Shown: positions 2,783 to 38,294 of the stretch, piece after piece | Numbering within the stretch: position 1 is the first letter of the stretch | How the letters are laid out: the number at the start of each line of letters is the position of its first letter | Assembly (NCBI GenBank): GCA_050179755.1 | Contig: JBFXEV010000001.1 | Location: 585,994-649,993, forward strand | Length of the DNA stretch: 64,000 nucleotides | Direction of reading: 5' to 3' | Source of the DNA: Candidatus Babeliales bacterium | Lineage (GTDB): Bacteria > Babelota > Babeliae > Babelales > JBFXEV01 | The notes under the pieces: generated by a model | Seen by the model: only the letters and a program-made list of their open reading frames with translations | Databases searched by the model: none | Told to the model about the DNA's origin: nothing | Made by a program: the position numbers and the translations under genes

Positions 2783-2808
2783 CTGCGCCAAGGCTCCGGC
2801 GCACAGGC
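2783..2808 (+). repeat. Palindromic mini-repeat family B copy
   Basis: ctgcgccaaggctccggcgcacaggc resembles the copies at 16981, 17045, 33009, 34030 and 38242. Confidence 0.6.
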
Positions 2809-2826
2809 ACCCTAATTTTGTAATTC

Positions 2827-2862
2827 CCTTACATCCCGATCCAGCGTAAGCGAGTTGAGGGG
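2827..2862 (+). repeat. Degenerate family A repeat copy
   Basis: catcccga...gagttgagggg resembles the CATCCCGAG...TCGAGGG arms at 33079 and 35268. Confidence 0.4.
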
Positions 2863-3603
2863 TCACTCTGCCTTTTCATGCGGTGTAGAATGCGCCGCCC
2901 ATGCCTTAAGCGCCATTGGAAAGTGAGGCTGTGCAAGCTGGTACATGCCTTGGGCATAGGCACGGATTTCATGCTGAGCGCCTGGGTCAAGGCGAAGAGT
3001 CAAAAAGTGCATGAGGGAGTGCAAGTTGCAGGTGAAAATAAACTCGGTATACACGCATACGGGCAAAACGCCACGGGCAAGCTCACGGCATACGCCCTGC
3101 TCCAGCATAAGCACATAAGCCTCGGTGGCTACCTTAATAGAGTTAATATACTGTTGTTTTAAGTGCTCATCTTCATAAGCGGCGCCTGAGGCTTGTTTAT
3201 TTATTTTATCCTGCGTACGCCATTTTGCAGGGATATAGAATTCTAGCTTGGCTTTGGCATAGCGGTAGCTAATTTCATTATACGAGTTCATGCGGTGGCG
3301 CATCCATTGGCGAGCCACATACATAGGGCATTTTACTCTGAATGAGAGCTGGTTATGCTCAAAGGGGCTTGTGTGCTTATATTGCATTAAAAAGTTGATA
3401 AGTTTTTCATCGCGCTCGGTAACCTCAGTGGATATTTTGCCGTATGAAACACGTGCTGCGTTTACAATATCAAGGTCGCTGCCAGAAACGCGTATAAGCT
3501 CCACGCTACTAATGCCATCACCCAGTGGGTCTATTTTATTTTCATGCTCTTCACGTTCATCGGCATGCAGATTAATTTTTTCTAATAATTGGTCTAAATG
3601 CAT
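2863..3603 (-). CDS. thyX: Flavin-dependent thymidylate synthase
   Basis: AARVSY, HTSPFEH, ARQWMRHR..SYNEISYRY (RHR-x7-SxR signature), RELARGVLP, AQHEIR. Confidence 0.97.
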   Translation of the reverse strand: MHLDQLLEKINLHADEREEHENKIDPLGDGISSVELIRVSGSDLDIVNAARVSYGKISTEVTERDEKLINFLMQYKHTSPFEHNQLSFRVKCPMYVARQWMRHRMNSYNEISYRYAKAKLEFYIPAKWRTQDKINKQASGAAYEDEHLKQQYINSIKVATEAYVLMLEQGVCRELARGVLPVCVYTEFIFTCNLHSLMHFLTLRLDPGAQHEIRAYAQGMYQLAQPHFPMALKAWAAHSTPHEKAE

Positions 3604-3750
3604 GGGTACTCCGTTATCGGGCCATTCTCTTTGTCTGTCCCGAAGTAAAGGTGTTACTGTTATTATCAGTTATTTAATTTAAGATACTGTTTTGAGAAAG
3701 AAGTGTAAAATCAGAGAAAGAAGAGGTCTTCACGTTTAATAGGGGATTTT

Positions 3751-5097
3751 ATGAAAAACGTTTTCACGAGCGCATTAACCGTTTTATGTTGTATTAACAT
3801 TTCTTTAGCGTATGCATATGAAATTAAATTTAAATTACTCCAAGATGCTGATCTTCCATTGATATACAATTGGTTGCATCAACCGTTTGTAAAAAAATGG
3901 TTTTCTCGTGAAGCATTGCCCTGGCAAGAATTCTTAACGTTTAGAGAACAAATTAAAAGTTATCTTGGCACGGGCCATGAATATCTGGCATGCCATAATG
4001 ATCACCCTTTTGGGTATATTCGTTTATATGATGCACATTTATGGCTTGATGGATTGGGCAACGCAGATCCTGAAGGCACGTATGGTATTGATTTATATAT
4101 TGGTGACGCAGGCTATCTTGGCAAAGGATTTGGCAGTGCAATGTTATCTCAATTTATAACCAAAAGTATCAAAGATCAGGTAGAACTTGGTAAGCCTATA
4201 ACGCAAATCATTGTCGATCCTGATAGTGCAAATGTAACAGCAATCAAAACGTATCAACGCCTTGGCTTTACTATAGATTATCAACTTGATGATCCTTTTT
4301 GGGGCAATCAACTTATAATGGTGCTTGATCCCGATCTTTTTGAGTTTCTTAATGACATGCATGGTTTCTATGAGGAAGATATTGTAAAAAATAAATCGCT
4401 AGAACAATTAGATACGTATCTTGATAACTTATTTGATAAAGTTTTGCAGCGCTTGGCATGTATTGGTATCTCGTATCACGATTGTGAGAACTTTTTGGTG
4501 CAATATGGCACTATTTTAAAGAGTCAAATAGAGAGCAAGTATGCTGCTCATGCACAAGGTTTGCCGCTTTTATCGCAAGAAACACTCTGTCTAGTGCACC
4601 AAGTTTTGCTTGATTTTGAAATTGACTCGCGTGATATTGTGCTTATTGCCTATACTGGCAAAGGTTCTCCTGTGGCAGCAGATGATTATACGTTATATAT
4701 CGATGAAAAAGAATTAAGTTGTTATACGCCTGAGGCACAACGTTTTGCTATAGCACACGAACTTATGCATTTTTTACATAAAGATAATAGTTTTGAAAGT
4801 GCCTTAGAAAATTTAATGGGTGAACAAAAATCAAAAGCACAACGTAATGCATTTTATACTTTTGCGCACGCAAATGAATTATGCGCAGATATTGATGCTA
4901 TGCTTAAAAATCAGGTGTACGCAACAAGTGGTGTAGCATTTTTAGAGCAATTAAAAGAACGCTTTGGCAGCGGCGCAAGCTTTACACATCCTAGCGCTGA
5001 CTTACGCCTGAATATTGCACAGCAGATCCAGTATTTACATGAACAGCTGTTAAAGCCAAACCCATCTGCCAGTCAAGCTATTCAGTTAGTTTTTTAG
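3751..5097 (+). CDS. Signal peptide + GNAT acetyltransferase (AAC(6')-like) + M48-like zinc peptidase fusion
   Basis: GIDLYIGDAGYLGKGFG, IIVDPDSANVTAIKTYQRLGF; C-terminal FAIAHELMH..ELCAD..THPSADLR. Confidence 0.75.
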   Translation: MKNVFTSALTVLCCINISLAYAYEIKFKLLQDADLPLIYNWLHQPFVKKWFSREALPWQEFLTFREQIKSYLGTGHEYLACHNDHPFGYIRLYDAHLWLDGLGNADPEGTYGIDLYIGDAGYLGKGFGSAMLSQFITKSIKDQVELGKPITQIIVDPDSANVTAIKTYQRLGFTIDYQLDDPFWGNQLIMVLDPDLFEFLNDMHGFYEEDIVKNKSLEQLDTYLDNLFDKVLQRLACIGISYHDCENFLVQYGTILKSQIESKYAAHAQGLPLLSQETLCLVHQVLLDFEIDSRDIVLIAYTGKGSPVAADDYTLYIDEKELSCYTPEAQRFAIAHELMHFLHKDNSFESALENLMGEQKSKAQRNAFYTFAHANELCADIDAMLKNQVYATSGVAFLEQLKERFGSGASFTHPSADLRLNIAQQIQYLHEQLLKPNPSASQAIQLVF

Positions 5098-5200
5098 TGT
5101 AAAACTATTGAAAAATAGCCTCTAAATATGCTAGTATAGAAGTAGGCAGGTTTAGGTTTTAAACTTGTAGATTTGATTTGATTTACAAAAGGAGAAAATC

Positions 5201-5530
5201 ATGAAAAATATTATATTATCAATAGCTGCGTTATTATTTGTAGCGAATGCGTGTGCAGGTGACCTTTATGTTGGTCAATCAGTAACACGTGAACAGCAAT
5301 TACCTACTGAATTTCAAACTGAACAACGAATTGAAACGCAAGTAGCGCCTACAACAGCGCAACAACCGCAAACAGTAAGCACAACAGTTGCTCGCCAAGC
5401 GTATGTGCGCCCAACACAACAACATGATTTGCTAAAAGGCGAACAAGGTTTTGATGCTCAAGTGACTCGTGAAGTTGAAGTACAAAAAACAACGTTGCCA
5501 GTCCAACGTAGAACTGCTTTTTTTCAATAA
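5201..5530 (+). CDS. Small secreted Gln/Thr/Val-rich hypothetical protein
   Basis: Strong RBS aaggag, signal peptide ending ACA, own downstream terminator. Confidence 0.8.
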   Translation: MKNIILSIAALLFVANACAGDLYVGQSVTREQQLPTEFQTEQRIETQVAPTTAQQPQTVSTTVARQAYVRPTQQHDLLKGEQGFDAQVTREVEVQKTTLPVQRRTAFFQ

Positions 5531-5549
5531 ATAAAAAGTAAGAATTGTT

Positions 5550-5589
5550 ATAAAAAATGGAGGTACTTACAAAGGCCTCCATTTTTTAT
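5550..5589. terminator. Bidirectional intrinsic terminator
   Basis: ataaaaaatggagg...cctccattttttat inverted repeat between convergent genes. Confidence 0.75.
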
Positions 5590-8441
5590 TTGGTGACTTC
5601 TTTCCAATCTTTTCCAGTACTTGTAGTCACTACAAGCGGCACATTCCAAGAGACTACGTTTTCCAATGTTTCACGGATTATTTTTTCTGTTTTTTGCGCT
5701 TGATCTTCTCGCACAGAAATTAATAGTTCGTCATGAATTTGCAAAATCATGTTTGCGTCTAGCTTATGCTCTTTAAAAGCCCGTTCAAGATTGATCATGC
5801 CGATTTTCATCAGTTCGGCTGCCGTGCCTTGTGCAACCGTGTTAATGGCTATGCGCGTAGCTTGTTCATAGAGTGATTTATTTTTTTCATGAATGCCTGA
5901 TACATAGCGGCGTCTGCCAAAGTGCGTGGTAACATACCCTTTTGCTTTTGTTTCTTCAATTATTTTATCCATCCATGCACTCACGCCAGGATATTGAGCA
6001 AAATACTTTTCTATATATATTTTTGCATCTTTAAATGGGATCTTAAGATCTTGAGAAAGTCCAAAAGGTGTTAGGCCATACAGGATACTAAAGTTAATAC
6101 GTTTGCCTATTTGACGTTGCTCGCTCGTTACTTTATCGCTCGTGGTATCAAATAAATTTGCAGCAGTTTTTTTGTGAATATCTTCATCATGCAAAAACGC
6201 ATCAAGTAAACTTTTATCTTGTGATAGATACGCAAGCACGCGCAATTCAATTTGTGAGTAATCGGCTGCAATAAATACGTGCCCAGGTTCTGGTTTGAAC
6301 GCCGAGCGCACTGAGTTTCCTTTGTATTCAAATGAATTTGTTGGCACGTTTTGCAAGTTAGGTTCTTGGCTTGAAAGTCTGCCAGTTGCCACAAGTGTTT
6401 GGCGGAACGTGGTGTGTATTTTGCCCGTTTCGGGATTTACATAAGAAGGCAAAGCTTCAATGTACGTGCTTTTGAGCTTAAATAATTCACGGTGCCGTAA
6501 GATGAGCGCTGGCACCGGGTGTAAATGTGCAAGGGCTTCTAGCACTTCTTGATCAGTTGAATAGCCAGTTTTTTTATCAGTTTGCTTTTGCGGAGGCAAT
6601 CGTAAATGTTCAAACAAGAGTATTGCAAGCTGACGCGGCGAGTTTAAATTAATGTCTTTATGCAAGGGGCCTACCAACGCATTAATTTTTTCTTTAATGA
6701 TTGTAAGCTCTTCATCAATTTTAACGTTTAGAGTTTTTAAAATCTCTGTATCAAGATTAATGCCACGGTACTCCATGTAGGTCAAAATATCAACGAGTGG
6801 AAACTCAATATCTTGGTAGAGTTTTGCCATATCTTGTTTAACGAGCGCGTCTACAAGAATAGGATATAATTGCCATGTTTGGTGCGCATCGCTGGCTGCA
6901 TATTCGGTGGCAAGTTCAAGAGGCACTTGTGCAAAGGTCTTAAAGCCGTTATTGATCACTGCTTCTTGAAAGCTAATCATAGGTTCGTTCAAAAAATATT
7001 CTGAAAGGTATTTAAGGCCATTGCGTTGCCAATCTTCTGTCACCAAGTGCGCTGCTAACAATGTGTCAAACACGAGCCCTTGCGGCATAATGCCGTAGTG
7101 CATAAAGGCGTGTTCGTCAAACTTGGCGTGATGCATGATTTTTTTAATGCTTGGATCTTCTAATATTTTTTTGAATGCAGCAAGCACCACGTCACGCGAG
7201 AGCTGGCGTTCGCCAGTGGTGTGCGCAAAGGGAATATAATAGGCAACTCCTTTTACGGTACATGCAGAAATACCCACCAAATGATTATAGAGCGGGTTTA
7301 GGCCAGTAAGTTCTGTATCAATAGCAACCAGTTTTTTTGTGTTAATTTCATGCACAAGCGCATCAAGCTTTTCTTGCGTATCAATCGTAATAAATTTGTA
7401 TCCCTTTGACTTGGAAAGCCATTCTTCTTTTCGCTCAGTCACCCCGGTAAGGCCTGCAATTTCTTTGACTAGCGAGGCAAATTCAAGTTTTTCAAACAAG
7501 GGGCGCGCTTTTGGCCAATACGTTGCATTAAATGCTAAATTTTCAAGTGTAACGCCGGTATCATATTCACGGAGTAAAAACAAATCACGGCTTAAGAATG
7601 CATTCTCTTTGTTTTCAATAAGAGCATTGCGTGTGCGATTTTTTTCAATTTTATCCAAATTTGCATAGGCATCTTCAAGTGAATCAAATTGTTGCGCAAG
7701 CTCGGTGGCTCCTTTTTCTCCAATACCTTTAACACCAGGAATATTATCTGAAGTATCGCCAAGTAATGCAAAATAAAACGGTAGTTTATGTAAGGCAAAT
7801 CCAAACCGTTCTTCCATTGCTTGGCGGTCATAAAATTTATCTTTAAATGAATCGTAGAGTACCACCTTGTCGCTAATGCATTGGCCCATATCTTTATCGG
7901 CAGTTACTAAAACAACTTGAAATCCTTGTTTTTCATACTCCCGTGCAAGTGAGCACATAAGATCATCTGCTTCTATACCAGGCGTTGCAATTTGATGGAG
8001 ACCAATAAGATCTGCAAATTCAATAATATGTTCTTTTTGGGTAAATAGATCGCTTGGTGGTGCTTGGCGTGTTGCTTTATAGTCCGGGAATATTTCATGG
8101 CGTACCGTTTTGCCTTTGCTATCCCATACCAGGCTCATGTACTGCGGCTGAAATTGCTTCATTAATTTTTGGATCATGCGGCAGAATGAATATACTGCTT
8201 GCACCGGCTCGCCGTGGATAGTATGGAGTGGGCGCATGCCATAGTAAGCGCGGTATAAATATGAGGAGCCATCGATTAAGAATATGGTTTTTTTAGGATC
8301 AAATTTCATGCCGTGTGTCTCGGGTAATTCGATTGAATCGCATAATGCGTCGGTATAAGTATTGTTAATAGGATACCCGCTATTCAGGGCAAAGACAAAT
8401 AAGGCAAGTAATAATGCTGCGAGTTTTTTTAAAATAATCAT
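5586..8441 (-). CDS. polA: DNA polymerase I (start 8441, or 8309 without the N-terminal extension)
   Basis: LIDGSSYLYRAYY, EADD, LLGDTSDNIPGVKGIG, AIDTE, TGRLSSQEPNLQN, ADYSQIELR, ILQIHDEL. Confidence 0.98.
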   Translation of the reverse strand: MIILKKLAALLLALFVFALNSGYPINNTYTDALCDSIELPETHGMKFDPKKTIFLIDGSSYLYRAYYGMRPLHTIHGEPVQAVYSFCRMIQKLMKQFQPQYMSLVWDSKGKTVRHEIFPDYKATRQAPPSDLFTQKEHIIEFADLIGLHQIATPGIEADDLMCSLAREYEKQGFQVVLVTADKDMGQCISDKVVLYDSFKDKFYDRQAMEERFGFALHKLPFYFALLGDTSDNIPGVKGIGEKGATELAQQFDSLEDAYANLDKIEKNRTRNALIENKENAFLSRDLFLLREYDTGVTLENLAFNATYWPKARPLFEKLEFASLVKEIAGLTGVTERKEEWLSKSKGYKFITIDTQEKLDALVHEINTKKLVAIDTELTGLNPLYNHLVGISACTVKGVAYYIPFAHTTGERQLSRDVVLAAFKKILEDPSIKKIMHHAKFDEHAFMHYGIMPQGLVFDTLLAAHLVTEDWQRNGLKYLSEYFLNEPMISFQEAVINNGFKTFAQVPLELATEYAASDAHQTWQLYPILVDALVKQDMAKLYQDIEFPLVDILTYMEYRGINLDTEILKTLNVKIDEELTIIKEKINALVGPLHKDINLNSPRQLAILLFEHLRLPPQKQTDKKTGYSTDQEVLEALAHLHPVPALILRHRELFKLKSTYIEALPSYVNPETGKIHTTFRQTLVATGRLSSQEPNLQNVPTNSFEYKGNSVRSAFKPEPGHVFIAADYSQIELRVLAYLSQDKSLLDAFLHDEDIHKKTAANLFDTTSDKVTSEQRQIGKRINFSILYGLTPFGLSQDLKIPFKDAKIYIEKYFAQYPGVSAWMDKIIEETKAKGYVTTHFGRRRYVSGIHEKNKSLYEQATRIAINTVAQGTAAELMKIGMINLERAFKEHKLDANMILQIHDELLISVREDQAQKTEKIIRETLENVVSWNVPLVVTTSTGKDWKEVTK

Positions 8442-9148
8442 TCAATTTTTGGTCTATTTTGATTGAGATTTGCGTTTATATGTTCTTTGTGATTAGGTAT
8501 GGTTTCGGGTGATAGTAGGGCAATTATGCGAGCGTGTTTTTTCTTAGATATACAATGTGATGTTGAAGCTTGTACTGCATGATCAATTGGACGGGCTTTG
8601 GACCATTCGTTTATTTTGCCACGACATTCTAGCACTTCTTTCGTAAGCACATCTGTTATGAATGCTAGGTGCTTTTCCACAATATCTTCGGGGGGTGTTT
8701 TTGGTAAAGACCGTATCAATGATTGTGGGATGGTCCAGAGCATTCGTTCGACCGCTCCTACATTGTTTTTACTTGCTGCATATTGCAGAGGCGTACCATG
8801 AAACACCAATTGAAGATGCTTTTTGCCCTTATGCATTGAAAATGATGCATCAATTTTAGCCCCCCGTGCTACAAGCTCAGAAATTAAATTTAGTCTATTC
8901 CAGGTAACAGCAGTAACAAGAGGTTGCACGAGTGTTTTTGGATCAAAGCCATCAACTTCTGCTCCTTCATCTATCAGTGTGAGTGCTCGTACAGTATTGC
9001 CATTTCGTATGGACTTTGCAAGTCGTTTGTTAAGTAGCGTTTGCCTTTGCTCTTTTGGTAATAATTGTAGAGGAATGCCATAATACATTGCATTAACGCG
9101 ACATCCACATATGAAGAATAGACTTATTAAAATATATTTGATATTCAT
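8438..9148 (-). CDS. Secreted ankyrin-repeat protein
   Basis: Signal peptide; PLVTAV..LVARGAKID and GTPLQYAASKNN. Confidence 0.8.
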   Translation of the reverse strand: MNIKYILISLFFICGCRVNAMYYGIPLQLLPKEQRQTLLNKRLAKSIRNGNTVRALTLIDEGAEVDGFDPKTLVQPLVTAVTWNRLNLISELVARGAKIDASFSMHKGKKHLQLVFHGTPLQYAASKNNVGAVERMLWTIPQSLIRSLPKTPPEDIVEKHLAFITDVLTKEVLECRGKINEWSKARPIDHAVQASTSHCISKKKHARIIALLSPETIPNHKEHINANLNQNRPKIE

Positions 9149-9176
9149 TTTTGTATTCCCTTGTTACACTTACAAT

Positions 9177-11141: not shown

Positions 11142-11148
11142 ACTTAAA

Positions 11149-12336: not shown

Positions 12337-12342
12337 GATTTT

Positions 12343-14019: not shown

Positions 14020-14050
14020 GGGATCTCTTATATTCTATATAATTTAATTG

Positions 14051-15368: not shown

Positions 15369-17174
15369 TTACTTTTTCAATAATTTTCTTTCATTATCTT
15401 TTTTTAATAAATCTAAAATGGTTTCTATAGTACGGTTTTTTTCACGAGCTTGTGCAAGTCTTAGTTGGTGCGTATTGAAAACGGCATCGCTTGTAGTTGT
15501 TACTCCAGGCATAGGTAGCATTTCTTCAGCTAAATCTAATGGGGTTTTTCCTTTTGCAAGCACGGGTGCATTTTTATATGTTGGTCTATGCTCCAAAGAC
15601 GTATCTGTTGCATTATTAAACACTGATGCAGTACGTGCAAGGAGTACTTTAACCCATTCAAGTTGTTGTAAGCCTACCGCCAGATGCAGAGCACCAAAAC
15701 CTTCTTTGGTTCTTCTATTAGGATTCGCGTCATGATAAAAAAATATTAAAATCGCTATCTTGCGTTTGGCATCGGTACATGTAGATAAGAGTAACTCATA
15801 AAAAGGAGTCACCCCAAGCCTGTTTTGTATATTTGGATCTGCTCCAGCACTAAGCATGTGTTGGACTGCCTCCGAATTTGATTCCTCATATGTTTTTAAA
15901 AGAAAGTGAAAAGAAGTTTCACCTAGCCAATTTTGAGTATTAGGATTTGCTCTATGTTTGAGCAAAGTGAGTAGTAATTTATGGCGGAAGAAACAGAATG
16001 ATTCAAGTTCTGCATGCGGTCTAAACACATAATGTAAAGCAGTTTCTCCGCTCCCATTTTGACTATCTATCGGTACGCCATGTTCTATCAAAAGATCTAT
16101 TAGTTTAGGGCGCGTTTCTTGAAACACTCTATCAGAACTGTGATGTTTTATTGCGTAATGCAAAGCATTTTCTTTTTCTTTATTGCCAAGTAATGGATTG
16201 GCGCCCTGCTTGAGAAATAAAGTAACTTGCTTTAATAATTGGGATGCATCAAATTCATTTATTGGGGTACTTGCAAGTAATAAATGGAGCGGTGTTTCGC
16301 CATTGATATCTTGCGCATTCACCGTAGAGGTTGCCATTGGGTGTTTGAGCAATAATTCTGTGCTGCTGTAATCTCTAATTTGTACCGCATAATGTAATCG
16401 TGTTTTGCCCGTTTGCTTGTCTTGTGCAGTTATTGTTTTATTTTCGCAAAGTTGTTTGATCGCACCTTCAAAAACAGTGTGACTAGCAGCAAGTAATAAT
16501 TTTTTATCAATAATCGCAAGAGCTGGATTGTCCAGCGCCCTACAAAGCATAACATTGTATGGCAATCTTTGGGCATAATCGAGTGTAGTTTGTCCGGCAG
16601 TAGTTTCAATCATTGGATTTGCGTTATAGGTAAGGAGTAGCGTGGCAACCTTAAATTGTTGAGAAGCTTCAAATTCATTTGACGTGGTAAAGCTTACGGC
16701 AAAATGCAGTGCTGTTTCTCCAGTTCCATCTGCAATATCAATTAATCCAGGTGATTCTTGTAATAACTGTTCTATGCAGGTAGTTTCTTGTAGCCATGTT
16801 GCCAAATGGAGACGAGTTCTTCCATGTGGGTCTTGTGCATTTATTGATGTAGTTTGTATCAGATCTGCAACTGCTTGTTGCACGTTACTATCAGCAGCTG
16901 CACGCAGTAATCGAGCGTCAATTTGCGCAAGCATGCTCAATGGTTCCTGTACATCCATCCGCCGTTGCTCCTCCGGAGCTCCCGCTACGCCTAAGCTATA
17001 GCGTGGCCAGATGGCGTGATTGGTATCACGTTCTTCGGCAAGTTCCCAGCCTTCGCGTGAAGCTACGGCGGGCACGGCAGGATGAGCGGACCTTGGCCAA
17101 GTCGGATCCATTGCATATATGTTGTGCGCAAATTGCAGTGATATGCATAAGAAAAAAATATTTTTTAACTTCAT
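15369..17174 (-). CDS. Secreted ankyrin-repeat protein with repeat-derived N-terminal segment
   Basis: Many GETALH/GETPLH repeats; signal peptide; residues about 29-73 encoded by palindromic repeats. Confidence 0.92.
   Translation of the reverse strand: MKLKNIFFLCISLQFAHNIYAMDPTWPRSAHPAVPAVASREGWELAEERDTNHAIWPRYSLGVAGAPEEQRRMDVQEPLSMLAQIDARLLRAAADSNVQQAVADLIQTTSINAQDPHGRTRLHLATWLQETTCIEQLLQESPGLIDIADGTGETALHFAVSFTTSNEFEASQQFKVATLLLTYNANPMIETTAGQTTLDYAQRLPYNVMLCRALDNPALAIIDKKLLLAASHTVFEGAIKQLCENKTITAQDKQTGKTRLHYAVQIRDYSSTELLLKHPMATSTVNAQDINGETPLHLLLASTPINEFDASQLLKQVTLFLKQGANPLLGNKEKENALHYAIKHHSSDRVFQETRPKLIDLLIEHGVPIDSQNGSGETALHYVFRPHAELESFCFFRHKLLLTLLKHRANPNTQNWLGETSFHFLLKTYEESNSEAVQHMLSAGADPNIQNRLGVTPFYELLLSTCTDAKRKIAILIFFYHDANPNRRTKEGFGALHLAVGLQQLEWVKVLLARTASVFNNATDTSLEHRPTYKNAPVLAKGKTPLDLAEEMLPMPGVTTTSDAVFNTHQLRLAQAREKNRTIETILDLLKKDNERKLLKK
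16958..17090. repeat. Nested in-frame repeats: family B inside C, and family B inside A
   Basis: + strand: tccgccgttgctcctccggagct[30 nt B, 16981-17010]atggcg. Minus strand: tccgctcatcctg[33 nt B, 17045-17077]aacttgccgaag. Confidence 0.75.
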
Positions 17175-17270: not shown

Positions 17271-17299
17271 AATGCCACTTATTTTAGAGAGGAAAATCT

Positions 17300-30234: not shown

Positions 30235-30442
30235 TACAAATCCTTTGCTTGTATTATTAAACTGCTTTTTGTTGGGTTGTTCTAGAGTTAGTTAAGCTGT
30301 TTTGGCGCCTTTCTTTTTAGCAAATTATTCCTAATATTACCTTAGCAGTTATGCTGGAAATTGCAATGCGCTGATTTTTTATTGTCACCTCTTGTGTTGT
30401 TTTGTTGCATTTGGGTACGCTAAAGTTAATAAAGGAGACGAA

Positions 30443-30853
30443 ATGCAAAAAACAATTACGTTGTTTTTGGTGATGTGTGGTCAAATGTATGCAATGGAGA
30501 AAGAACAAACTCAACAACGAATCTCAATAATGGTAGCCGCCTGGGTGGTAACGCCCGACACACCGCTTAATGAAAAAAGTGAATTTCGTTTATTTCAGTT
30601 CCCCAATGGTTCACGCAAAATTACTTATACGTCCAGGCCTCAAGGGATTTTTGAAAAGCCGTGTGATGTAAAAACAGTATTAGAATTGCCTGCATCAAGT
30701 GTGATCGACATACCCATTCATTTACATAGCTGTACAAAAGACTATTTAAAGCTAAGTGCACCACAAGACGTTCATTGGTATAAAAGTTCTATCGTAACTC
30801 ATGGTGCAGCAGTATTGAGTACGATTCTTGTTATGGCTGCACTTTTTCATTAG
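30443..30853 (+). CDS. Secreted hypothetical protein with hydrophobic C-terminus
   Basis: aaaggag RBS before ATG 30443; signal peptide ending MYA-M; C-terminal GAAVLSTILVMAALFH. Confidence 0.7.
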   Translation: MQKTITLFLVMCGQMYAMEKEQTQQRISIMVAAWVVTPDTPLNEKSEFRLFQFPNGSRKITYTSRPQGIFEKPCDVKTVLELPASSVIDIPIHLHSCTKDYLKLSAPQDVHWYKSSIVTHGAAVLSTILVMAALFH

Positions 30854-32150
30854 GGATTTCAAGCACGTGTGCATATTTGTGCGCCAAGTATAAAAGCCCT
30901 AATACGTTTGGCACTGCGACAAGTGGCAAGATAACATCTGCAATTGCCCAGGCAAGAGGCACTGCTATTAATGATCCTACAAAAATGATTAAACAGACAA
31001 AAATTACATATGCATTTACATATTTAAATTGTGTGATCGTTGCAAAGCTTTGACGGCCATTAAAGCTGTTCCCAATTACTGTGCCGATCACAAACATGCA
31101 AATTGCTGCTACAAGTAATGGTCTGCCAAGAACCGGAATATATTGATTAAAGACTTGATACATCATGGTGTTGTCAAGCGTGCCTTTTTGCCAAAGTCCA
31201 GAAATTAACACTAAAAGTCCTGATAATGTGCATAGTAGCATATCCACACAGGCAGATACCATAGCAAGAATCCCTTGATCAGATGGATGTGCAACATCTG
31301 CCATTGCATGCGGAATAGAAGAAGTTCCCATGCCAGACTCGGTAATAAAAGCACCTTTATAGACGCCAGAGCGCACTGCAGAATAAAAAGTTGCTCCTAG
31401 AAATCCGCCAAGCGCAGGCAATGGTGCAAATGAATATTTTAACACGAGGCTCAGCGCATCGAGTGTTGCGCTCCAATTGTTAATTAATATTATTAATGAA
31501 GATGAAACATAAATAAAAAACATTGCTGGTACTAGCTTGCTATTAAACTCACCAATTCGTTTGGCGCCTCCTTGTAAAAGTATGAATACTAAGATAGCAA
31601 GTGTTGCGCCAGTGACCCATGTTGGTATAGATTCTTGCGCAAGTACATCTGCAAGCACGTTTGTTTGAAGCCCTGACCAGCAAGAAAATAAAAATACTGT
31701 TGCAAACGTGTACCACCAACCAAGCCATGGATATACTTTTTGTAAATATTGCATGGGGCCGCCTACAATTTTGCCGTCTGGTTGTTGTGATCTAAAATGA
31801 ACTGCAAAGGTAACTTCTGCAAACTTGGTAACGCTTGCAACAAAAGCATAAAAAACTAACCAAAACAAAGCGCCGGGCCCGCCGACAGCAATAGCGATTG
31901 AAGGCCCCACAATAGTGCCCATGCCAATAGAAGTAGACATGGCATTAAATAATGCATAAAACGGATTAATGCCAGCCCTATCGCTGCGTTCAGTTAAACC
32001 GTTTCTGAGCAAATGCCAAAAGCGAGGCAATCCTCTCAATTGCAAAAAATTGAGTTTTACAGTCAAAAAGAGAGCAGCACCAAGTAATATAAATGCTGCA
32101 GGCACTGCAAGCACGTAGGCAATGTAATCAATTAACGAAAGTAAATTCAT
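30831..32150 (-). CDS. Alanine/glycine:cation symporter (AGCS/AlsT family)
   Basis: IAVGGPGALFW, KFAEVT, VGGPMQYL, ESGMGTSSIPHA, VPNVLGL; many TM segments. Confidence 0.92.
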   Translation of the reverse strand: MNLLSLIDYIAYVLAVPAAFILLGAALFLTVKLNFLQLRGLPRFWHLLRNGLTERSDRAGINPFYALFNAMSTSIGMGTIVGPSIAIAVGGPGALFWLVFYAFVASVTKFAEVTFAVHFRSQQPDGKIVGGPMQYLQKVYPWLGWWYTFATVFLFSCWSGLQTNVLADVLAQESIPTWVTGATLAILVFILLQGGAKRIGEFNSKLVPAMFFIYVSSSLIILINNWSATLDALSLVLKYSFAPLPALGGFLGATFYSAVRSGVYKGAFITESGMGTSSIPHAMADVAHPSDQGILAMVSACVDMLLCTLSGLLVLISGLWQKGTLDNTMMYQVFNQYIPVLGRPLLVAAICMFVIGTVIGNSFNGRQSFATITQFKYVNAYVIFVCLIIFVGSLIAVPLAWAIADVILPLVAVPNVLGLLYLAHKYAHVLEIPNEKVQP

Positions 32151-32162
32151 GTGGTTCTTTCT

Positions 32163-32765
32163 TTATCTTACTTTTGCCAAATATGAAAGCGCGGATCTCA
32201 ATTGATGATCAAAAGGGGCATTGCTCATATCATTAGTTTTAACGTGCTGTAGTGCGCCAGTAATTTCTTGCCGTGAATAATTGAGCGAAGTGAGTACTTG
32301 GGTAATTTGTTGCCATTGCTTTGCGCTGCTATCATCTGCTAAATTTACACCACTCGTAATAAGTTGTGCTACTTTGTCTTTTAAATGTACCACAATTTGC
32401 TCAGCTTTTTTCTTGCCAATACCAGGTACTTTTGAAAGCATGGTGCTATTTTCTTGCCCTATTGCCTCAAGTGTGCCATTGCCACCTAAACATTCAAGCG
32501 TTGCAAGACCAATTTTAGGACCAATACCAGAGCAACTTATCACCAGCAAAAATACGGTGCGGTCAAGTTCTGTTTCAAATCCATAGAGTGTTGGGCCCTG
32601 CTCTTGGTTCCAATGAAGATAGGTCAATAAAGAACTTTCTTTATTAAGAGTATAGGCAGCTTCTTGAGCCACAAGTACCGCAAAACTAATGCCGGAGCCT
32701 GCAGCTTGTATTACTACTGTTTTGGGCCTAATGGAGTGAATGGTGCCTTTAATGCTATCAATCAT
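32163..32765 (-). CDS. ruvA: Holliday junction branch migration protein RuvA
   Basis: MIDSIKG, TLYGF, SGIGPKIG, KVPGIGKKKAEQIVVHLKDK. Confidence 0.95.
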   Translation of the reverse strand: MIDSIKGTIHSIRPKTVVIQAAGSGISFAVLVAQEAAYTLNKESSLLTYLHWNQEQGPTLYGFETELDRTVFLLVISCSGIGPKIGLATLECLGGNGTLEAIGQENSTMLSKVPGIGKKKAEQIVVHLKDKVAQLITSGVNLADDSSAKQWQQITQVLTSLNYSRQEITGALQHVKTNDMSNAPFDHQLRSALSYLAKVR

Positions 32766-32850
32766 GTTTCCTCAATAAATTTTTACCTATTCTTGTTTCA
32801 AGTATACGGTGCAATTAATGCGCACGCAAATGGCCTTTATAGCATTTTTG

Positions 32851-32878
32851 TTGACAAATGAGCTTTGTGTGGTACCTT
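32851..32878 (+). promoter_or_regulatory. Putative tRNA promoter
   Basis: TTGACA-16-TACCTT with TG extension, 22 nt before the tRNA. Confidence 0.6.
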
Positions 32879-32900
32879 TTTAAATGAATTTGAAAGATAT

Positions 32901-32976
32901 GTGGGAATAGCTCAGCTGGTAGAGCGTTGCCTTGCCAAGGCAAAGGTCGCGGGTTCGAATCCCGTTTCCCACTCCA
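32901..32976 (+). tRNA. tRNA-Gly (GCC)
   Basis: 76-nt cloverleaf: acceptor GTGGGAA/TTCCCAC, anticodon arm TTGCC-TTGCCAA-GGCAA, GGTTCGAATCC T-arm, U73, encoded CCA. Confidence 0.97.
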
Positions 32977-32977
32977 C

Positions 32978-33132
32978 TCGCCGCCGCTCCTTTGGAGCTA
33001 AGGCGTAGTGCCACGCATAGCGCTTCGCGTGAAGGTGGGTAGTCTTCGTTCTTGTAGGCTATTTTCTATAGCCTTTATCCGCTCATCCAGAGTGTTCTAT
33101 AAAGCTTTAGCGAAATAGAATGTATCGAGGGG
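32978..33132. repeat. Repeat cluster behind tRNA-Gly: family C (32978-33005), B (33009-33039, reverse), A (33079-33132)
   Basis: tcgccgccgctcctttggagctaaggcg; reverse complement cccaccttcacgcgaagcgctatgcgtggca; ccgctcatccagagtg-ttctat..atagaa-tgtatcgaggg. Confidence 0.8.
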
Positions 33133-33231
33133 CATTCAGGACTATTTCCCAAAGCCGAGTATACTGATACACTTACAAATAGCGTCCTTAAATTATTGTT
33201 TTTATGATTTTTTTCTCAAGGTACCACATAT

Positions 33232-34005
33232 ATGAAATCTATTGTTCAAGAAGGTTCTACTATCTCCAAGGCGGTTGAAAGTGCCTGGCAATCAGCCGGC
33301 AAACCCCACGAGTTTACCGTAAAAATCCTTGAAGAACCACAACACAACTTTATTGGTATGACCACGCGATCCGCAAAAGTCGCTTTATTTTTTAAAGAAC
33401 CAATATCATCTGGTAAGTCACACGATAAAGCAGAACGTTTTGGTCGCCAAGAACGTGCCGAGCGCAGTGAGCGCCCAGAACGCGGCGAACGCTCTGAGCG
33501 TGATAACCGTGGACGCGCTAAAAAGCAAGGTCGCGGGCCTCGCCAAGAAACTAATGGCAAACCATCCTCGTATGCAAAAGATTTTAGAAATGCGCAAGAA
33601 GAACAGCCTTCTTGGCCTAAAGAGCGTGAGCGAGCGCCGCAACGTGCACATAGTAAACCTTCTTTTGAACAAAAAGAGCAAGCTTTAGAGCATGAAGGTT
33701 CAGAAGATATGGCATTTGATGGCGTGTTCTGGACGCCAGAAATGATTATCATGGCAAAAGATTGGTTGCAAGGTTCACTGGCTGCAATGGATTTGCCGCA
33801 TGTGCACTATTCTACTGATGTGAATCGCCTTTATTTTAAAGTTTCATTTGACGAGCCGGTTAATCCTAATATGGCAACCGAACGTCAAATATTCCGTAGC
33901 TTTGCAATGCTTTTAATGCAGCATATGCGCAATAGGCTTAAGCGCCCACTTAAGGGGTTTAAGGTTGTGTTGTCCCGCGGCGGTGTTGACGTTGAAGATG
34001 AATAG
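33232..34005 (+). CDS. jag: Jag/EloR (KhpB)-like protein: Jag N-terminal domain, charged linker, no clear R3H
   Basis: MKSIVQEGSTISKAVESA..VKILEEPQHNFIG..AKV fits Jag_N; lies upstream of mnmE as is typical. Confidence 0.75.
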   Translation: MKSIVQEGSTISKAVESAWQSAGKPHEFTVKILEEPQHNFIGMTTRSAKVALFFKEPISSGKSHDKAERFGRQERAERSERPERGERSERDNRGRAKKQGRGPRQETNGKPSSYAKDFRNAQEEQPSWPKERERAPQRAHSKPSFEQKEQALEHEGSEDMAFDGVFWTPEMIIMAKDWLQGSLAAMDLPHVHYSTDVNRLYFKVSFDEPVNPNMATERQIFRSFAMLLMQHMRNRLKRPLKGFKVVLSRGGVDVEDE

Positions 34006-34029
34006 AAGAGAATTTCTTTCTCGTGAAAT

Positions 34030-34191
34030 GGCCAAGCCAGGCGTAGCTTTTGCGAAGACTGGTGGCGTTGACGTGCACGAAGAATAATCAATCGCTCACC
34101 CTGAGTAGTCCGTCATTTATGTGTTTTGCATTAAGCTTCTAGAGCCATGAGTATGTTGTGGGAATAGGCAAATGACGGATGTATCGAAGGG
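34030..34191. repeat. Family B (34030-34062, reverse) and family A (34092-34191) repeats
   Basis: Reverse complement ccagtcttcgcaaaagctacgcctggc; cgctcaccctgagta-tccgtcattt..aaatgacgga-tgtatcgaaggg. Confidence 0.8.
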
Positions 34192-34217
34192 TTTCGGTTT
34201 CTATCGAGGTTATAAAC

Positions 34218-35651
34218 ATGGCATTATTTCATGCCAAAGATCAAGAAACTATTATAGCGCAATGCACCCCTCAAGGTAGTGGTGCATTGGCGCTTATTCG
34301 CTTATCTGGCAACACTGCATTTGAAGTTGCAGATCAACTTTGTAAGCTTGCAAGTAACATAAAGCTTTCTGAAGTTCCTTCACATACCGTGCATTATGGC
34401 AGCGTGGTAGAGCACACCGGTGCAATAATTGACCGCGTGATGATTATTGCCATGCGTGGCCCCAAAACATTTACTGGCCAAGATACCGTAGAAATTACGT
34501 GTCATAATAATCAATTTGTGATTGAGCAAATTATTGAACGTGCAATTGCGTGTGGTGCTCGTTTGGCTACGGGCGGCGAATTTTCAAAACGGTCAGTATT
34601 AAATAACAAGATGGATTTGGTGCAAGCAGAAGCAGTGCATGAATTGATCCATGCAGCACATCAACAAAGTCTCAAGCAATCGCTGTCTCAGCTTGAAGGC
34701 AGCTTTAGCCGGTGGATTATCACTCTTGAAAAGCGCTTAGTTAAATGCTTGGCACTTTCTGAAGCTAGTTTTGAATTTCTTGATGAAGAAAATATGGCGT
34801 TTGGTGGGCAAATTAGAGAGATGCTTTCCGCAACGCTCCGTGATATTACCACCATTAAAAAAACGTTTGATCAACAACAACAAATTAGAGACGGCATTCG
34901 CATTGCCCTTTTGGGTTCAGTTAACGTAGGCAAATCATCTTTATTTAACGCACTGCTTGAAAAAGAACGCGCAATTGTGACTGATATTGCAGGCACCACG
35001 CGTGATGTTATAGAAGCAAGTATGAGCGTTGATGGTGGGTTTTGGACGTTTGTGGATACAGCAGGATTACGCACAACCAATGACATTGTGGAGCTTAAAG
35101 GCATTGAACGATCTCACGAAGAAGCTGCAAAAGCTGATATTATTTTATTGATCTATGATGGTGCACGCGAACTGCTTGAATCTGAGCGTGTGGTTTATCA
35201 ATCAATTTTACGTGAGTATGGTTCTAAAGTTGTTGTGGTTCAAAATAAGTCTGATCAATTTTTTTCACCGCTCATCCCGAGTGAATCGCGTAGCGATTTG
35301 TATCGAGGGACAGCCGATAAAAAAGATTTTCAAAAGTTGTTAATCCTTAAAACCTCTGTAAATCTTCCAGAAACTATCATTCAACTTCATCAAGTAATCA
35401 AAAATAAAGTGGCAACTCTTTTTGCAAGCAGCGCATCACCCTTTTTGCTTAATAAGCGTCAATTTCAATTGCTTGTGCAACTTGAACAAACAATTAATAC
35501 TATAATGCCAATGCTAGATGGTGCTGTTGAATATGAGCTGCTCTCATGCCATGTGCAAGATGCTTTGAGCAACCTTTCTGAACTTAGCGGTAAATCTATA
35601 AGTGAAGCCGGCATGGATGCAGTATTTAAAGAATTTTGTGTTGGAAAGTAA
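34218..35651 (+). CDS. mnmE: tRNA modification GTPase MnmE
   Basis: TIIAQCTP, IRLSG, PKTFTGQDTVEITCH, GSVNVGKSSL, IAGTTRD, DTAG, NKSD, C-terminal FCVGK. Confidence 0.97.
   Translation: MALFHAKDQETIIAQCTPQGSGALALIRLSGNTAFEVADQLCKLASNIKLSEVPSHTVHYGSVVEHTGAIIDRVMIIAMRGPKTFTGQDTVEITCHNNQFVIEQIIERAIACGARLATGGEFSKRSVLNNKMDLVQAEAVHELIHAAHQQSLKQSLSQLEGSFSRWIITLEKRLVKCLALSEASFEFLDEENMAFGGQIREMLSATLRDITTIKKTFDQQQQIRDGIRIALLGSVNVGKSSLFNALLEKERAIVTDIAGTTRDVIEASMSVDGGFWTFVDTAGLRTTNDIVELKGIERSHEEAAKADIILLIYDGARELLESERVVYQSILREYGSKVVVVQNKSDQFFSPLIPSESRSDLYRGTADKKDFQKLLILKTSVNLPETIIQLHQVIKNKVATLFASSASPFLLNKRQFQLLVQLEQTINTIMPMLDGAVEYELLSCHVQDALSNLSELSGKSISEAGMDAVFKEFCVGK
35268..35310 (+). repeat. Family A repeat embedded in frame in mnmE
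   Basis: ccgctcatcccgagtg-aatcgc-gta-gcgatt-tgtatcgaggga encodes PLIPSESRSDLYRG. Confidence 0.85.
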
Positions 35652-35722
35652 CAATAACGCTGCTTGCCCGAATTTGCTGTAAGCAAAGAAGGGTATTTCG
35701 CGAATTCTGTAGAGGCAAATAG

Positions 35723-36426
35723 CTATTTTAACAATTGCATATATCCGTTAATTATCTTATTTTTATAATAGCCTAGAGCTTTTGGGTTAAGTAATAGTGC
35801 TGCTGCAACGTGTCCGCGCTCTTCTGCCATTTGCATTGGGGTTTGGCTTTTTTCTTTATATCTTACTCTAGCACTCAGTGTATGTTTAAGTTGATTTATA
35901 TGTCTTATTGTAAGCGCAGCAATGATTTGTTCTTTATAGAGAGGAGTCATAACGCATTTATAAGCTGGCAGCTGTCTTAGTGGTAGATGATTAATAAAAT
36001 CTTTTGGCATTGGTAAGCAAAAAGAAAAAATTTTGGTGTATACTTCTGCTGGCCTTGTTAAATTCAGTCGATTTATGCAGCATAAATAAGTGAACCATTT
36101 TTTTTTCATTCTATGCATCCACATATCAGAAAACTCAGGACCGCCCTGTGGACTTATTAACAATGTTTCTATGATCTGCAACCTGTTGTACATTGCAGCT
36201 TGATGAAAAGGAGGTGGATTTTTTAGTTTTTTTTTGATTTTGTTTTGACCTTGGCTCCTTTTAGCAGTAATTGAGCAGCGTCTGCTGAATTATCATTTTC
36301 AATTGTTGTAAATAAAAGACGACGCAGCGGTTGTTTTGATGGGGGTGCGCTCTTTTTCATAGCCATGATAGATGGAGCAAAAATGAGCGAGCAGGCAAGG
36401 AATGAGATAGATTGTCTTGCTGGCAT
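35723..36426 (-). pseudogene. Secreted ankyrin protein split by a frameshift in an A9 tract
   Basis: One extra A at 36227-36235 joins LLLKGAKVKTKSKKK to LKNPPPFHQAAMYNRLQIIETLL, continuing the ankyrin motif. Confidence 0.75.
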
Positions 36427-36519
36427 GTTATTCCTTTTTGAGTTTCATCATATATACTCTTATTTTTAGTATACACAAGCAATTATTGTAACTGCAAGTG
36501 GGTATAGATAGCAGTTTAC

Positions 36520-37500
36520 CTAGTTTATCTTGCACAACTCAAGGTAATGCGGCCAAAGTGATGAATGTGGTAATGTAGCATCTTTTGTGATCAACCACAA
36601 AAGGTGTTGATAAAGATCAAGGCAATGTGGTTTAAGATGCGTAAAAGCAAGTTCATAAAGTCCATTATAAACACATTCTTCAAAAGATCTTAGATCTTTA
36701 TAAAAAAAATCTTCTGGATTTTCAATATTGCGCTGTTCATAATCAAGAAGCACCAGATTATTATCAGGGTCAACATATATCCCATTTTTTACATTCCAAT
36801 AACCGGTGGCGCAAATAATATTAAAGAGTTCAATAATTGCTTCTTTTGAAATATCTTTAATGCAATGCGGCGCATTTTTTAAATGAACAAGATCAGGGAT
36901 ATGTTCTTGCACCACAATGTAATTTTCATCGCTAAGTAGAGTGCTATAATGTGCGATGTGTACTAAATAAGTTGGCGCAATACGTATGTGCGTGCAAGAG
37001 AAATGCTCAAGTGCTTTTTCTAAAAGTAGATAATAGGCATATCTGCTAATAGTTTGATAGGTTGGCACTATTTCAAGTTTATCAATTAACGTGCTATTTC
37101 TAAACTCCCAATGTTTTGCAATTTCTGCATACCAATATGAATTTGCGCGCGTGTTATACGCATATATATTGCGAATTCTATGTTTAGGCCCTGCAATTTG
37201 CACCCAATAGTCATTATGGGGAATTTGAAAGACAAAATTGGTATATGCATGGTTTTTTATACCATGTTTAAAAAGATGCCAATTACCATTAGTGTATTTT
37301 TCTTGCCACGTGGAAAGTGGGTAGGGCGTTCTTGCAAGATAGATTAATAAATCTTGATTTTCCGTAATCCATGCTTGGGCATGAGCATTTGGCACTTTGC
37401 TTATATAAGATCTTAGTGAATCTTGGTTGAGTTGAATGAGTGATGGTGAAAAAGCAAAAGCGCTGTACTGGAAAAAAAGGAATAAACCAGCACAGCGCAT
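36520..37500 (-). CDS. Secreted hypothetical protein, possibly kinase-like fold
   Basis: Signal peptide; IRIAPTY..YIVVQEHI..GYWNVKNGIYVDPDNNLVLLDYE. Confidence 0.65.
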   Translation of the reverse strand: MRCAGLFLFFQYSAFAFSPSLIQLNQDSLRSYISKVPNAHAQAWITENQDLLIYLARTPYPLSTWQEKYTNGNWHLFKHGIKNHAYTNFVFQIPHNDYWVQIAGPKHRIRNIYAYNTRANSYWYAEIAKHWEFRNSTLIDKLEIVPTYQTISRYAYYLLLEKALEHFSCTHIRIAPTYLVHIAHYSTLLSDENYIVVQEHIPDLVHLKNAPHCIKDISKEAIIELFNIICATGYWNVKNGIYVDPDNNLVLLDYEQRNIENPEDFFYKDLRSFEECVYNGLYELAFTHLKPHCLDLYQHLLWLITKDATLPHSSLWPHYLELCKIN

Positions 37501-37532
37501 AAAATAATTCTATAAAAAAATTAGGTAAACAA

Positions 37533-38147
37533 TTAGATACTCAAGGTATAAAGATCAACGCAACGATCTTTTGAATGAGCAGCTTTTGAATTGCCTTCTG
37601 AGTGAGCCTCTTTAGTGCCTACGCCAAATGCCTTAATGTGGTCGCTTGGAACGCCTTGTTTTTTAAGTTCACGAGCAACAGATTGCGCACGTTGGTCAGA
37701 AAGAGCCAAGTTATAAGCTTCTGTTCCGCGATATTTGCAAGCTTTACCTTTGCAAACCACGGTTTTACCCTCTTGAGTAAATTCTTGCGCTTTTGATTTA
37801 TTTGCGCTCATTTTTTCTACTTCTGTTTGTGGAATACGTGAGCTGTCGTAATCAAAATAAACGGTTTTAAAAGACTCTTTGCCTTCTTCATGCGCATTTT
37901 CCCATGTAAATGGTAAACCTTGCCCGTTGCTTGCGAGTGTGGCATTGTCGTTAACGCCGCCAAATAAGTCATCTTGTTCTAAAACAAATGACTCAATGTC
38001 TTCATCAAAGACTGAGGCTTGCGCCGTTTTCATTTCATAATTTTTTGATGCATTGTTTCTTTTATTAGATTTTGTTGAATTACCTCCGCCACAACCACCA
38101 AGGGCAATTACAGCAACAACTAAGGCCAAAAGAAAAGATTTAGTCAT
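37533..38147 (-). CDS. pal: OmpA-family peptidoglycan-associated lipoprotein (Pal-like)
   Basis: Lipobox LGGC; TVYFDYDSS, GTEAYNLALSDQRAQSV, KDRCV. Confidence 0.85.
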   Translation of the reverse strand: MTKSFLLALVVAVIALGGCGGGNSTKSNKRNNASKNYEMKTAQASVFDEDIESFVLEQDDLFGGVNDNATLASNGQGLPFTWENAHEEGKESFKTVYFDYDSSRIPQTEVEKMSANKSKAQEFTQEGKTVVCKGKACKYRGTEAYNLALSDQRAQSVARELKKQGVPSDHIKAFGVGTKEAHSEGNSKAAHSKDRCVDLYTLSI

Positions 38148-38212
38148 GAAAGTCTCTCCGGGAAATTAAAAGGTTTGTAGATTAATCAATTTTGTTTTTA
38201 TATCAGAATTTT

Positions 38213-38241
38213 AGCATAGTTTGTACTCTGCTTAAAGTCAA
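38213..38241 (-). promoter_or_regulatory. Putative sigma70 promoter of pal
   Basis: TTGACT-17-TATGCT on the minus strand. Confidence 0.6.
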
Positions 38242-38294
38242 CCCTCCTACGCTTATCCGGGCCATCAGGCTCGAAAAGCTTCGCAGGGCAGGCC
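38242..38294 (+). repeat. Family B repeat interrupted by a small hairpin
   Basis: ccctcctacgct[tatccgggccatcaggctcga]aaagcttcgcagggcaggcc. Confidence 0.6.

Follow-up and report, generated by a model that had tools for sequence, protein, structure and literature searches.

The 64,000-nucleotide stretch analysed here, referred to as the window, covers positions 585994-649993 of contig C1 of a Candidatus Babeliales genome (assembly GCA_050179755.1, here termed G000; a single contig of 1,525,295 bases with 39% G+C) and contains several types of short GC-rich palindromic repeat, designated families A, B and C. Family A is probably the end-repeat of a selfish cassette, in which a gene for a 94-residue GIY-YIG protein (GIY-2) lies between two copies of the repeat that face one another; the nuclease would have been lost in G000, leaving some 55-60 orphan copies. 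By the same explanation, families B and C would be the equivalent repeats of a second cassette, which carries another GIY-YIG gene (GIY-1) and docks directly after the CCA end of genes for tRNA or transfer-messenger RNA (tmRNA). The missing partner of the repeats is thus probably not a transposase, but a pair of small GIY-YIG nuclease genes.

The movement of such cassettes may be pictured along the lines of the Ssn system, in which a small GIY-YIG nuclease is combined with hairpin repeats in single-stranded DNA (Chenal et al. 2025, Nat Commun, PMC11893778). The nuclease would recognise the invariant non-Watson-Crick core of the repeat in single-stranded DNA and nick beside it, as SsnA does at NTS hairpins, whereupon nicking and host repair could spread both the cassette and its solo ends. 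It is in this sense that cleavage of single-stranded DNA is proposed, with the nuclease as the presumable agent of movement. The repeats themselves, their covariation, their gain and loss between congeners, and their linkage to and co-occurrence with the nuclease genes are observed directly.

Sequence, fold and mobility of family A

The covariance model of family A (R1) was built from 28 aligned copies (alignment A2), in which the full element reads ACCGCTCA-Y-CCY-GA-G-TG-[P3]-NGT-A-T-C-GA-RGG-R-(N3-5)-TGAGCGGT. Its helices are P1 (CCGCTCA/TGAGCGG), P2 (YCCY/RGGR), which is extended by invariant G.A, A.G, G-C, T.T and G.A pairs and a 3-nucleotide bulge, and the apical hairpin P3, which is variable in sequence, spans about 15 to about 70 nucleotides and frequently closes with a C-GNA-G loop. 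A short form, A' (CCGCTCATCCTGAGCTTGTCGAAGGAC), has no P3 and an identical P2 core. The arms of the element are fixed, while the inner hairpin is kept for its pairing and not for its sequence, as supported by several properties of the 28 copies. Stem cells are paired in 90.9% of cases, compared to 66.5% in shuffles, changes on both sides are found in 10 of the 11 stem pairs, and sliding the partner columns of the alignment lowers the pairing to 37-57%. An extra pair (columns 9-61) covaries as well (TA 12, CG 13, TG 3), and the non-Watson-Crick G.A, A.G, T.T and G.A pairs are kept in 26, 27, 28 and 28 of the 28 copies, respectively. The DNA fold of a full copy with P1 amounts to -14.7 kcal/mol (z -4.07 in the sense and -3.22 in the antisense direction). 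An identity of the core with the hammerhead or twister was rejected by eye, the order and nucleotides of the core being unlike the consensus sequences of these ribozymes.

A sequence-only reading of the window had proposed such fixed arms around a structurally conserved inner stem for copies at 33079, 34092 and 35268, and all three read exactly as claimed there. The census further demonstrates that the family extends well beyond the window. R1 yields 59 matches in G000 at E<=1, about 37 of them with P3 and about 17-20 in the short form. The 5' arm alone (<=2 mismatches) is found 37 times, compared to 0-2 in five shuffles, and the 3' arm 33 times, compared to 5-12, while a regular expression for paired arms gives 35 matches, at least three of which are evident false positives. 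Most copies in G000 are intergenic and some lie within open reading frames (ORFs), according to a crude ORF-based gene call; their flanking sequences are mutually unrelated. Inverted doublets occur in G000, and the members of two doublets (169156/169220 and 1450375/1450438) look copied from each other. In a sample of 121 genomes of the order, R1 matches were obtained in 50 (E<=1e-3), distributed among 16 of 20 other families in addition to the family of G000. A second sample, intended to be phylum-wide, proved to derive entirely from the same order and gave matches in 61 of 151 genomes at E<=1e-4. A scan of IMG/VR for family A with the inner hairpin yielded no true copies among the 119 matches listed.

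The copies of family A come and go between close relatives. The copy within mnmE is absent from all nine other Babeliales MnmE proteins aligned (10 of 24 loci, comprising G000, its congener G017 and eight more), including that of G017 (77% identity), and the DNA alignment of G000 and G017 shows a clean 49-nucleotide gap at this position. The orthologous G017 site of the copy upstream of mnmE (34089-34194) is likewise empty, the insertion amounting to roughly 115 nucleotides with unrelated flanks, and for the copy at 33076 a decayed counterpart survives at the orthologous position of G017. Two of the three copies in the window thus stand opposite empty sites, and G000 gained copies of A after its split from G017, in spite of having no GIY-2. 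In another genome of the order, G023, one P3 subtype is represented by about 20 copies scattered over many contigs, whose sequences agree to 88-100%, P3 included; this indicates a recent burst in which P3 was inherited together with the arms. Elements are also nested in each other, as in the A copy at G000:1340582, whose P3 loop harbours a short copy, the A copy within an X1 element (the repeat that follows the CCA in GIY-1 loci) in G111, and the element after tRNA-Leu(caa) of G000, which is split by B plus A. Family A is therefore supported as a real, mobile and non-autonomous set of hairpin repeats, and in this respect the mobility and nesting suggested by the sequence-only reading are borne out, the former by the comparison of filled and empty sites that it had called for.

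GIY-YIG genes beside the repeats

The GIY-2 gene was discovered between copies of A in clusters of genome G109. Its product matches PF01541 (E 3.9e-19, residues 4-75), with only two further matches that are weak and overlapping (T5orf172 just above the cut-off and RTBV_P46 below it), and is well conserved, including the GIY and YIG motifs. Twenty GIY-2 loci, one per genome, were inspected for R1 matches within 120 nucleotides. Full or short copies were found on both sides of the gene in 12 loci, on one side in five (at least one of which lies at a contig start) and on neither side in three. In 10 of the 12 doubly flanked loci, the upstream copy is in the sense orientation, 25-67 nucleotides before the start codon, and the downstream copy is antisense, 7-53 nucleotides past the stop. 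The left and right copies of a cassette match each other in length, sequence and P3, and also in a compensated TGG/CCA variant of P2. As a control, the 14 GIY-1 loci (42.5 kb) contain a single A match.

The association extends to the distribution of the two across genomes. GIY-2 homologs (E<=1e-20) are present in 32 of the 121 genomes, and family A was detected in 25 of these 32, compared to 25 of the 89 GIY-2-negative genomes (odds ratio 9.1, Fisher p 1.7e-6); this statistic ignores phylogeny. GIY-2 is absent from G000, where a tblastn search for remnants at E<=50 gave only a cross-match to GIY-1 and noise, and the copies of A in G000 are therefore orphans. In G017 a GIY-2 cassette is present, and the matching site of G000 holds an unrelated short spacer. 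The suggestion that a GIY-YIG gene flanked by the repeats should be sought is thus answered by GIY-2, and the initial impression of a system with no visible transposase holds for the window itself, while the partner genes lie outside it, GIY-1 in G000 and GIY-2 in relatives.

Two further observations concern the cassettes. Some GIY-2 frames (locus L252 on G122:C164 and loci L234, L236 and L244) run into the downstream hairpin, such that tails of the type ...IRPELVEG... or ...AQDER... are translated repeat. The G017 cassette (G017:C1:1034040-1037312) is embedded among tandemly repeated units of about 53 nucleotides (CCGCTCNCCCTGATAGTTCGACAGGCTCACTATGAAAG...), which resemble a variant short A.

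Several points weigh against the nuclease cassette as the source of family A. At the above cut-off, no GIY-2 homolog was found in 25 of the 50 A-positive genomes, among them G000 and others with at least 40 copies of A (counts per genome are minimum values, taken from the best 46 scored candidates of each), and hence the repeats can be kept without the nuclease. The two filled and empty sites, whose flanks have diverged, show no target-site duplication. When folded by nearest-neighbour parameters, the copies of the window perform no better than shuffles (z 0.28 to -1.98), and the mismatches in the stems include seven G.T and two A.C, a small excess. The orientation of A relative to replication is unbiased (18 of 37), which counts against the proposal inasmuch as a strictly lagging-strand mechanism on single-stranded DNA might give a bias. 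To our knowledge, no strand-joining activity has been reported for GIY-YIG nucleases. The nearest solved structures to GIY-2 belong to UPF0213 proteins (1YWL and 1ZG2, E ~2e-17), and the likeness to Ssn (cd10448) is one of layout and size; such a proximity to UPF0213 would fit a subfamily neighbouring Ssn. Finally, the SRM search motif of the Ssn study, HGTCWY...RNCYNB (PMC11893778), has one match in G000, compared to a mean of 1.7 in 10 shuffles.

The second nuclease, GIY-1, is an 80-residue GIY-YIG protein (PF01541, 53.6 bits), which is encoded once in G000 (G000:562283-562522), adjoining the tmRNA gene, and has homologs in 84 of the 121 genomes, where several copies are common. The layout at 14 GIY-1 loci comprises a tRNA or tmRNA gene, its CCA, a repeat X1, an AT-rich spacer, a repeat X2 and the ORF. 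The sequence of X2 is that of the B consensus in reverse complement, and a B-type repeat lies directly upstream of the gene in 13-14 of the 14 cases by manual reading. ARAGORN calls a tRNA or tmRNA ahead of GIY-1 in 11 of the 14 loci; a twelfth is an uncalled partial tRNA-Asp behind a first cassette, and two have none. In many genomes, a conserved word resembling (T)CTTTAA(T/G)GGA opens the spacer between X1 and X2 (e.g. G000:562600-562680); it could be the promoter of the nuclease gene or a part of its recognition site. In G098 (G098:C72:1356-4592), two tandem GIY-1 cassettes follow tRNA-Asp, and a partial 3' copy of this tRNA precedes the second, which looks like the outcome expected for an integration that duplicates the tRNA end.

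Families B and C had been regarded as equal in rank to A. They are, however, variants of one superfamily located at tRNA CCA ends, and A is separate. A GC-rich element directly after the CCA is carried by 23 of the 35 tRNA and tmRNA genes of G000, in about six types by manual reading. The core of C gives 30 strand-matches in G000, equal to 15 palindromic sites (0-2 in shuffles), and the core of B, AAGCTNCGGCGGGCA, gives 32 (3-13 in shuffles). In the window, the two C sites previously placed at 16958 and 32978 were recovered at 16960 and 32979 (four strand-matches, i.e. two palindromic sites, compared to none expected). For B, the core occurs at 17060 without mismatch and at 38276 with two mismatches, whereas a gapless search of the window with the full consensus once proposed gave nothing at <=3 mismatches; the sites at 2783, 33009 and 34030 do not conform to it and are instead related variants of the tRNA-end superfamily. 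Of the degenerate A copies that had been listed, the one at 2827 has a decayed look but scores no R1 match at E<=1, the one at 17029 is really a minus-strand fragment of the 5' arm at about 17078-17093, and the one at 35662 belongs to the family found behind tRNA-Tyr, tRNA-Leu(aag) and tRNA-Ser(gga).

The elements at tRNA ends also invite a different explanation, whereby they, and above all B and C, are kept chiefly as host tRNA terminators, 3'-processing signals or gene-end hairpins, the nuclease link being secondary. Apart from the high proportion of tRNA genes that carry them, several of the elements terminate with a GC hairpin and a subsequent run of T, and a perfect 6-nucleotide fold-back of the CCA (CCA+3 / 3+TGG) is present at 7 of the 35 tRNA and tmRNA genes, compared to 34 of 2000 random CCA sites. 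Against this view, G000 and G017 carry unlike element types behind the same tRNA: at the position of 32974-33045, G017 has a different type of the same superfamily. Copies of the tRNA-end type are also located within ORFs and far from tRNAs, the tandem cassettes and partial tRNA-Asp of G098 look like integration, and family A is left without explanation. This alternative is the strongest of those considered, though on balance improbable.

Other explanations and further features of the window

A structured RNA, on which selection would act in the transcript and not as mobile DNA (as a ribozyme, a regulatory RNA or a motif bound by protein), would account for the conserved unpaired or non-canonical nucleotides between the covarying helices of A, for arm sequences kept across so many families of the order, and for the slight excess of G.U over A.C. 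It is nonetheless unlikely in the light of the following. Rfam at gathering score matches only the tRNA in the window, and at E<=5 nothing meaningful was found for 13 copies of A. The orientation of A relative to genes is unbiased (14 sense and 16 antisense with respect to flanking co-directional genes, 6 and 7 within large ORFs), its copies differ between congeners at orthologous sites, and matched inverted pairs enclose a nuclease gene. In addition, the P3 loops frequently have the form C-GNA-G, which is typical of stable DNA hairpins.

Even less probable is a system of repetitive extragenic palindromes (REPs, or REPINs) moved by a RAYT, i.e. by an IS200-like transposase of the Y1 (HUH) type whose substrates are single-stranded hairpins, a possibility for which the sequence-only reading had proposed a search. 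G000 does contain a single Y1_Tnp gene (62.9 bits), upstream of which two A-type copies of the short form lie at a distance of no more than 200 nucleotides, and both the inverted doublets of A and the covariation of its stems recall REPINs and REPs. However, in an alignment to the TnpA proteins of ISDra2 and IS608, the HUH motif reads LVH, with Leu in place of its first His, and the catalytic Tyr is apparently a Phe, as read in the C-terminus beyond the aligned part. Copies of A are located on only one side of the gene, genomes with 40 or more copies of A have no Y1 homolog, and Y1 homologs occur in 15 of 50 A-positive compared to 16 of 71 A-negative genomes (odds ratio 1.5, p 0.4). A GTAG at the 5' end of the palindrome is a feature of the REP/RAYT system; the family A consensus, ACCGCTCAYCCYGAGTG, has no such tag, although some B-type copies do hold CGTAG. 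The Y1_Tnp gene itself (G000:C1:216899-217327; minus strand of extracted locus L001, 1426-1857) is 74% identical to its counterpart in G017 and may be a domesticated, catalytically dead transposase.

The weakest alternative, that there is no mobility and the repeats were spread by ordinary recombination or segmental duplication of their neighbours, has the two doublets with the appearance of mutual copies in its favour, and is barely tenable given the clean 49- and roughly 115-nucleotide insertions, the unrelated flanks of the copies and the burst of near-identical copies over many contigs of G023. Miniature inverted-repeat transposable elements (MITEs) of a DDE transposon were considered and rejected: no duplication is seen at the two filled and empty sites, where the flanks have diverged, and the parent cassette encodes only a nuclease.

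The individual elements of the window are collected in Table 1.

Table 1. Repeats and associated features, in window positions unless marked G000
Position	Strand	Feature	Context and remarks
2780..2812	+	Solo decayed element of tRNA-end type, like ACCTGCGCCAAGGCTCCGG...	Between thyX and rpmA; no adjoining tRNA
2826..2863	+	Candidate decayed relic of family A	By eye only; no R1 match at E<=1
16958..17112	-	Composite of C/B element and fragment of family A 5' arm	Translated in frame, ~residues 22-77 of a 601-residue protein
32901..32973	+	tRNA-Gly(GCC), docking point of the next element	Rfam tRNA, 74 bits
32974..33045	+	C and B as one element of ~72 nucleotides	Right after the tRNA CCA; also behind tRNA-Arg(acg), tRNA-Thr(tgt) and tRNA-Phe
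33076..33134	+	Family A copy with an inner hairpin of two tiers, TTCTAT/ATAGAA	56.8 bits; intergenic, ~100 nucleotides past tRNA-Gly
34030..34062	-	Element of tRNA-end type, reverse complement CCAGTCTTCGC-AAAA-GCTACGCCTGGCTTGGCC	Just past the stop of a Jag-like gene
34089..34194	+	Family A copy, long inner hairpin TCCGTCATTT/AAATGACGGA	40 bits; just upstream of mnmE
35265..35312	+	Family A copy in frame within mnmE, inner stem AATCGC/GCGATT	64.7 bits; ~17 extra residues (SPLIPSESRSDLYRGTA)
35659..35692	-	Copy of the family behind tRNA-Tyr, tRNA-Leu(aag) and tRNA-Ser(gga)	Just past the mnmE stop
38242..38294	+	Family B copy of the type that leads GIY-1, inner hairpin CCGGGCC/GGCTCG	Between a pal-like OmpA gene and an RNase E/G-family gene
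G000 740706-741152, 1360300-1360747, 1468451-1468896		Examples of the 200-450 bp repeat family

In the protein that includes it, the composite element at 16958-17112 follows the signal peptide and precedes the ankyrin repeats. The same composite is also observed in 3.6-kb repeated units at 405-412 kb (G000:C1:403956-412719), near the apparent start of the unit, and could represent either an N-terminal module shared with the ankyrin protein or a repeated insertion at one position. Separately, a family of 200-450 bp repeats, with ends like TGTAGAAGTTCCACTG, GC-rich inner palindromes and a self-BLAST depth of up to 18, was noticed in G000 and looks like a MITE. Between 19631 and 30234 of the window, four adjacent minus-strand ORFs (908, 903, 749 and 737 residues) share segments of about 135-175 nucleotides at their starts (22259, 25421, 27751 and 30136), and this stretch is, on sequence grounds, a paralogous gene array.

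Occurrence beyond the order and comparison with known systems

The 17-nucleotide short core of family A is found in at least 125 stretches of species-representative genomes, where some tens would be expected by chance for a 17-mer in 596 Gb, according to our own estimate. Among the 138 matches listed, the core is preceded by CCGTTC[AG]N in 32 (exactly CCGTTCGC in 23) and has an inverted partner within 45 nucleotides in 23, in both cases across many phyla. Five genomes with the short core were searched for GIY-2. The gammaproteobacterial record of Ca. Methylumidiphilus contains a homolog with 58% identity, flanked by short A copies; of the other four, three gave weak matches with no adjacent core and one gave none. 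A cassette consisting of a UPF0213-like GIY-YIG gene between two facing hairpins, with the core CCYGAG...TCGARGG, might tentatively be viewed as a class of mobile element with a nuclease as its only gene, so far undescribed, spread throughout bacteria and distinct from Ssn/SRM. Such elements would have ends of folded single-stranded DNA with a fixed core of purine mismatches and a free apical stem, relatives that home to tRNA CCA ends, and the ability to colonise essential reading frames in reduced intracellular genomes. If this speculative view were true, the presence of the core flanked by CCGTTCGC across phyla would mean that one family of elements has spread through most of the bacterial domain.

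A full-text search of the literature gave no description of these repeats. The present work assigns likely partner genes to repeats that seemed orphaned, and extends to the Dependentiae an idea only one year old, namely the pairing of a small GIY-YIG nuclease with single-stranded DNA hairpin repeats. Compared to the Ssn system, the variable apical hairpin, the in-frame insertion and the second pair of nuclease and repeat at tRNA CCA ends are new. The features that lend themselves to experiment include the G.A/A.G/T.T recognition core, the free apical hairpin, the matched ends of the cassette, the docking at CCA and the in-frame colonisation of proteins that are essential or secreted. In annotation, many of the short GC-rich ORFs labelled hypothetical, and of the odd insertions seen in proteins, can be interpreted as translated repeats in these genomes and possibly across many phyla. 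Should the nucleases indeed cut these hairpins, they would constitute new sequence- and structure-specific nucleases for single-stranded DNA.

Among known systems, Ssn is similar in several respects (PMC11893778). GIY-2 is a single-domain GIY-YIG protein of 94 residues, the same length as Nm SsnA, and its Tyr17 and Glu64, as counted on one protein (P0002), fall at the numbers mutated in SsnA (Y17A and E64A; Chenal et al. 2025). In both systems, the nuclease gene has hairpin repeats on both sides, tens of orphan copies are found elsewhere in the genome, a non-palindromic conserved part orients the repeat, and the elements are enriched in host-associated bacteria (PMC11893778). They differ in that the sequence of family A is unrelated to NTS, and the only Dependentiae genome found in the 12 of 14 supplementary files searched, that of Ca. 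Babela massiliensis, has 0 motifs and lacks ssnA according to Supp. data 4 (PMC11893778).

The Rickettsia palindromic elements are likewise GC-rich palindromes inserted in frame in essential genes (here mnmE, in addition to the ankyrin protein) of an AT-rich intracellular bacterium, with no transposase within the element. Family A differs in being shorter (45-60 nucleotides) and in having a nuclease partner defined in relatives. REPs and REPINs, which the work of Nunvar in 2010 and Ton-Hoang in 2012 is said to have linked to RAYT transposases, share with family A the short dispersed palindromes with compensatory changes in their stems, the inverted doublets and the single partner gene flanked by repeats. 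The partner here is, however, a GIY-YIG nuclease and not a HUH Y1 transposase, GTAG is lacking, and the lone Y1-like gene, apparently inactive in catalysis, shows no association with A. Finally, the attC sites of integrons also combine conserved outer boxes with a variable central hairpin that is kept for its structure, and are recognised as folded single-stranded DNA, whereas the copies of family A are dispersed, with neither an integron integrase nor a cassette array.

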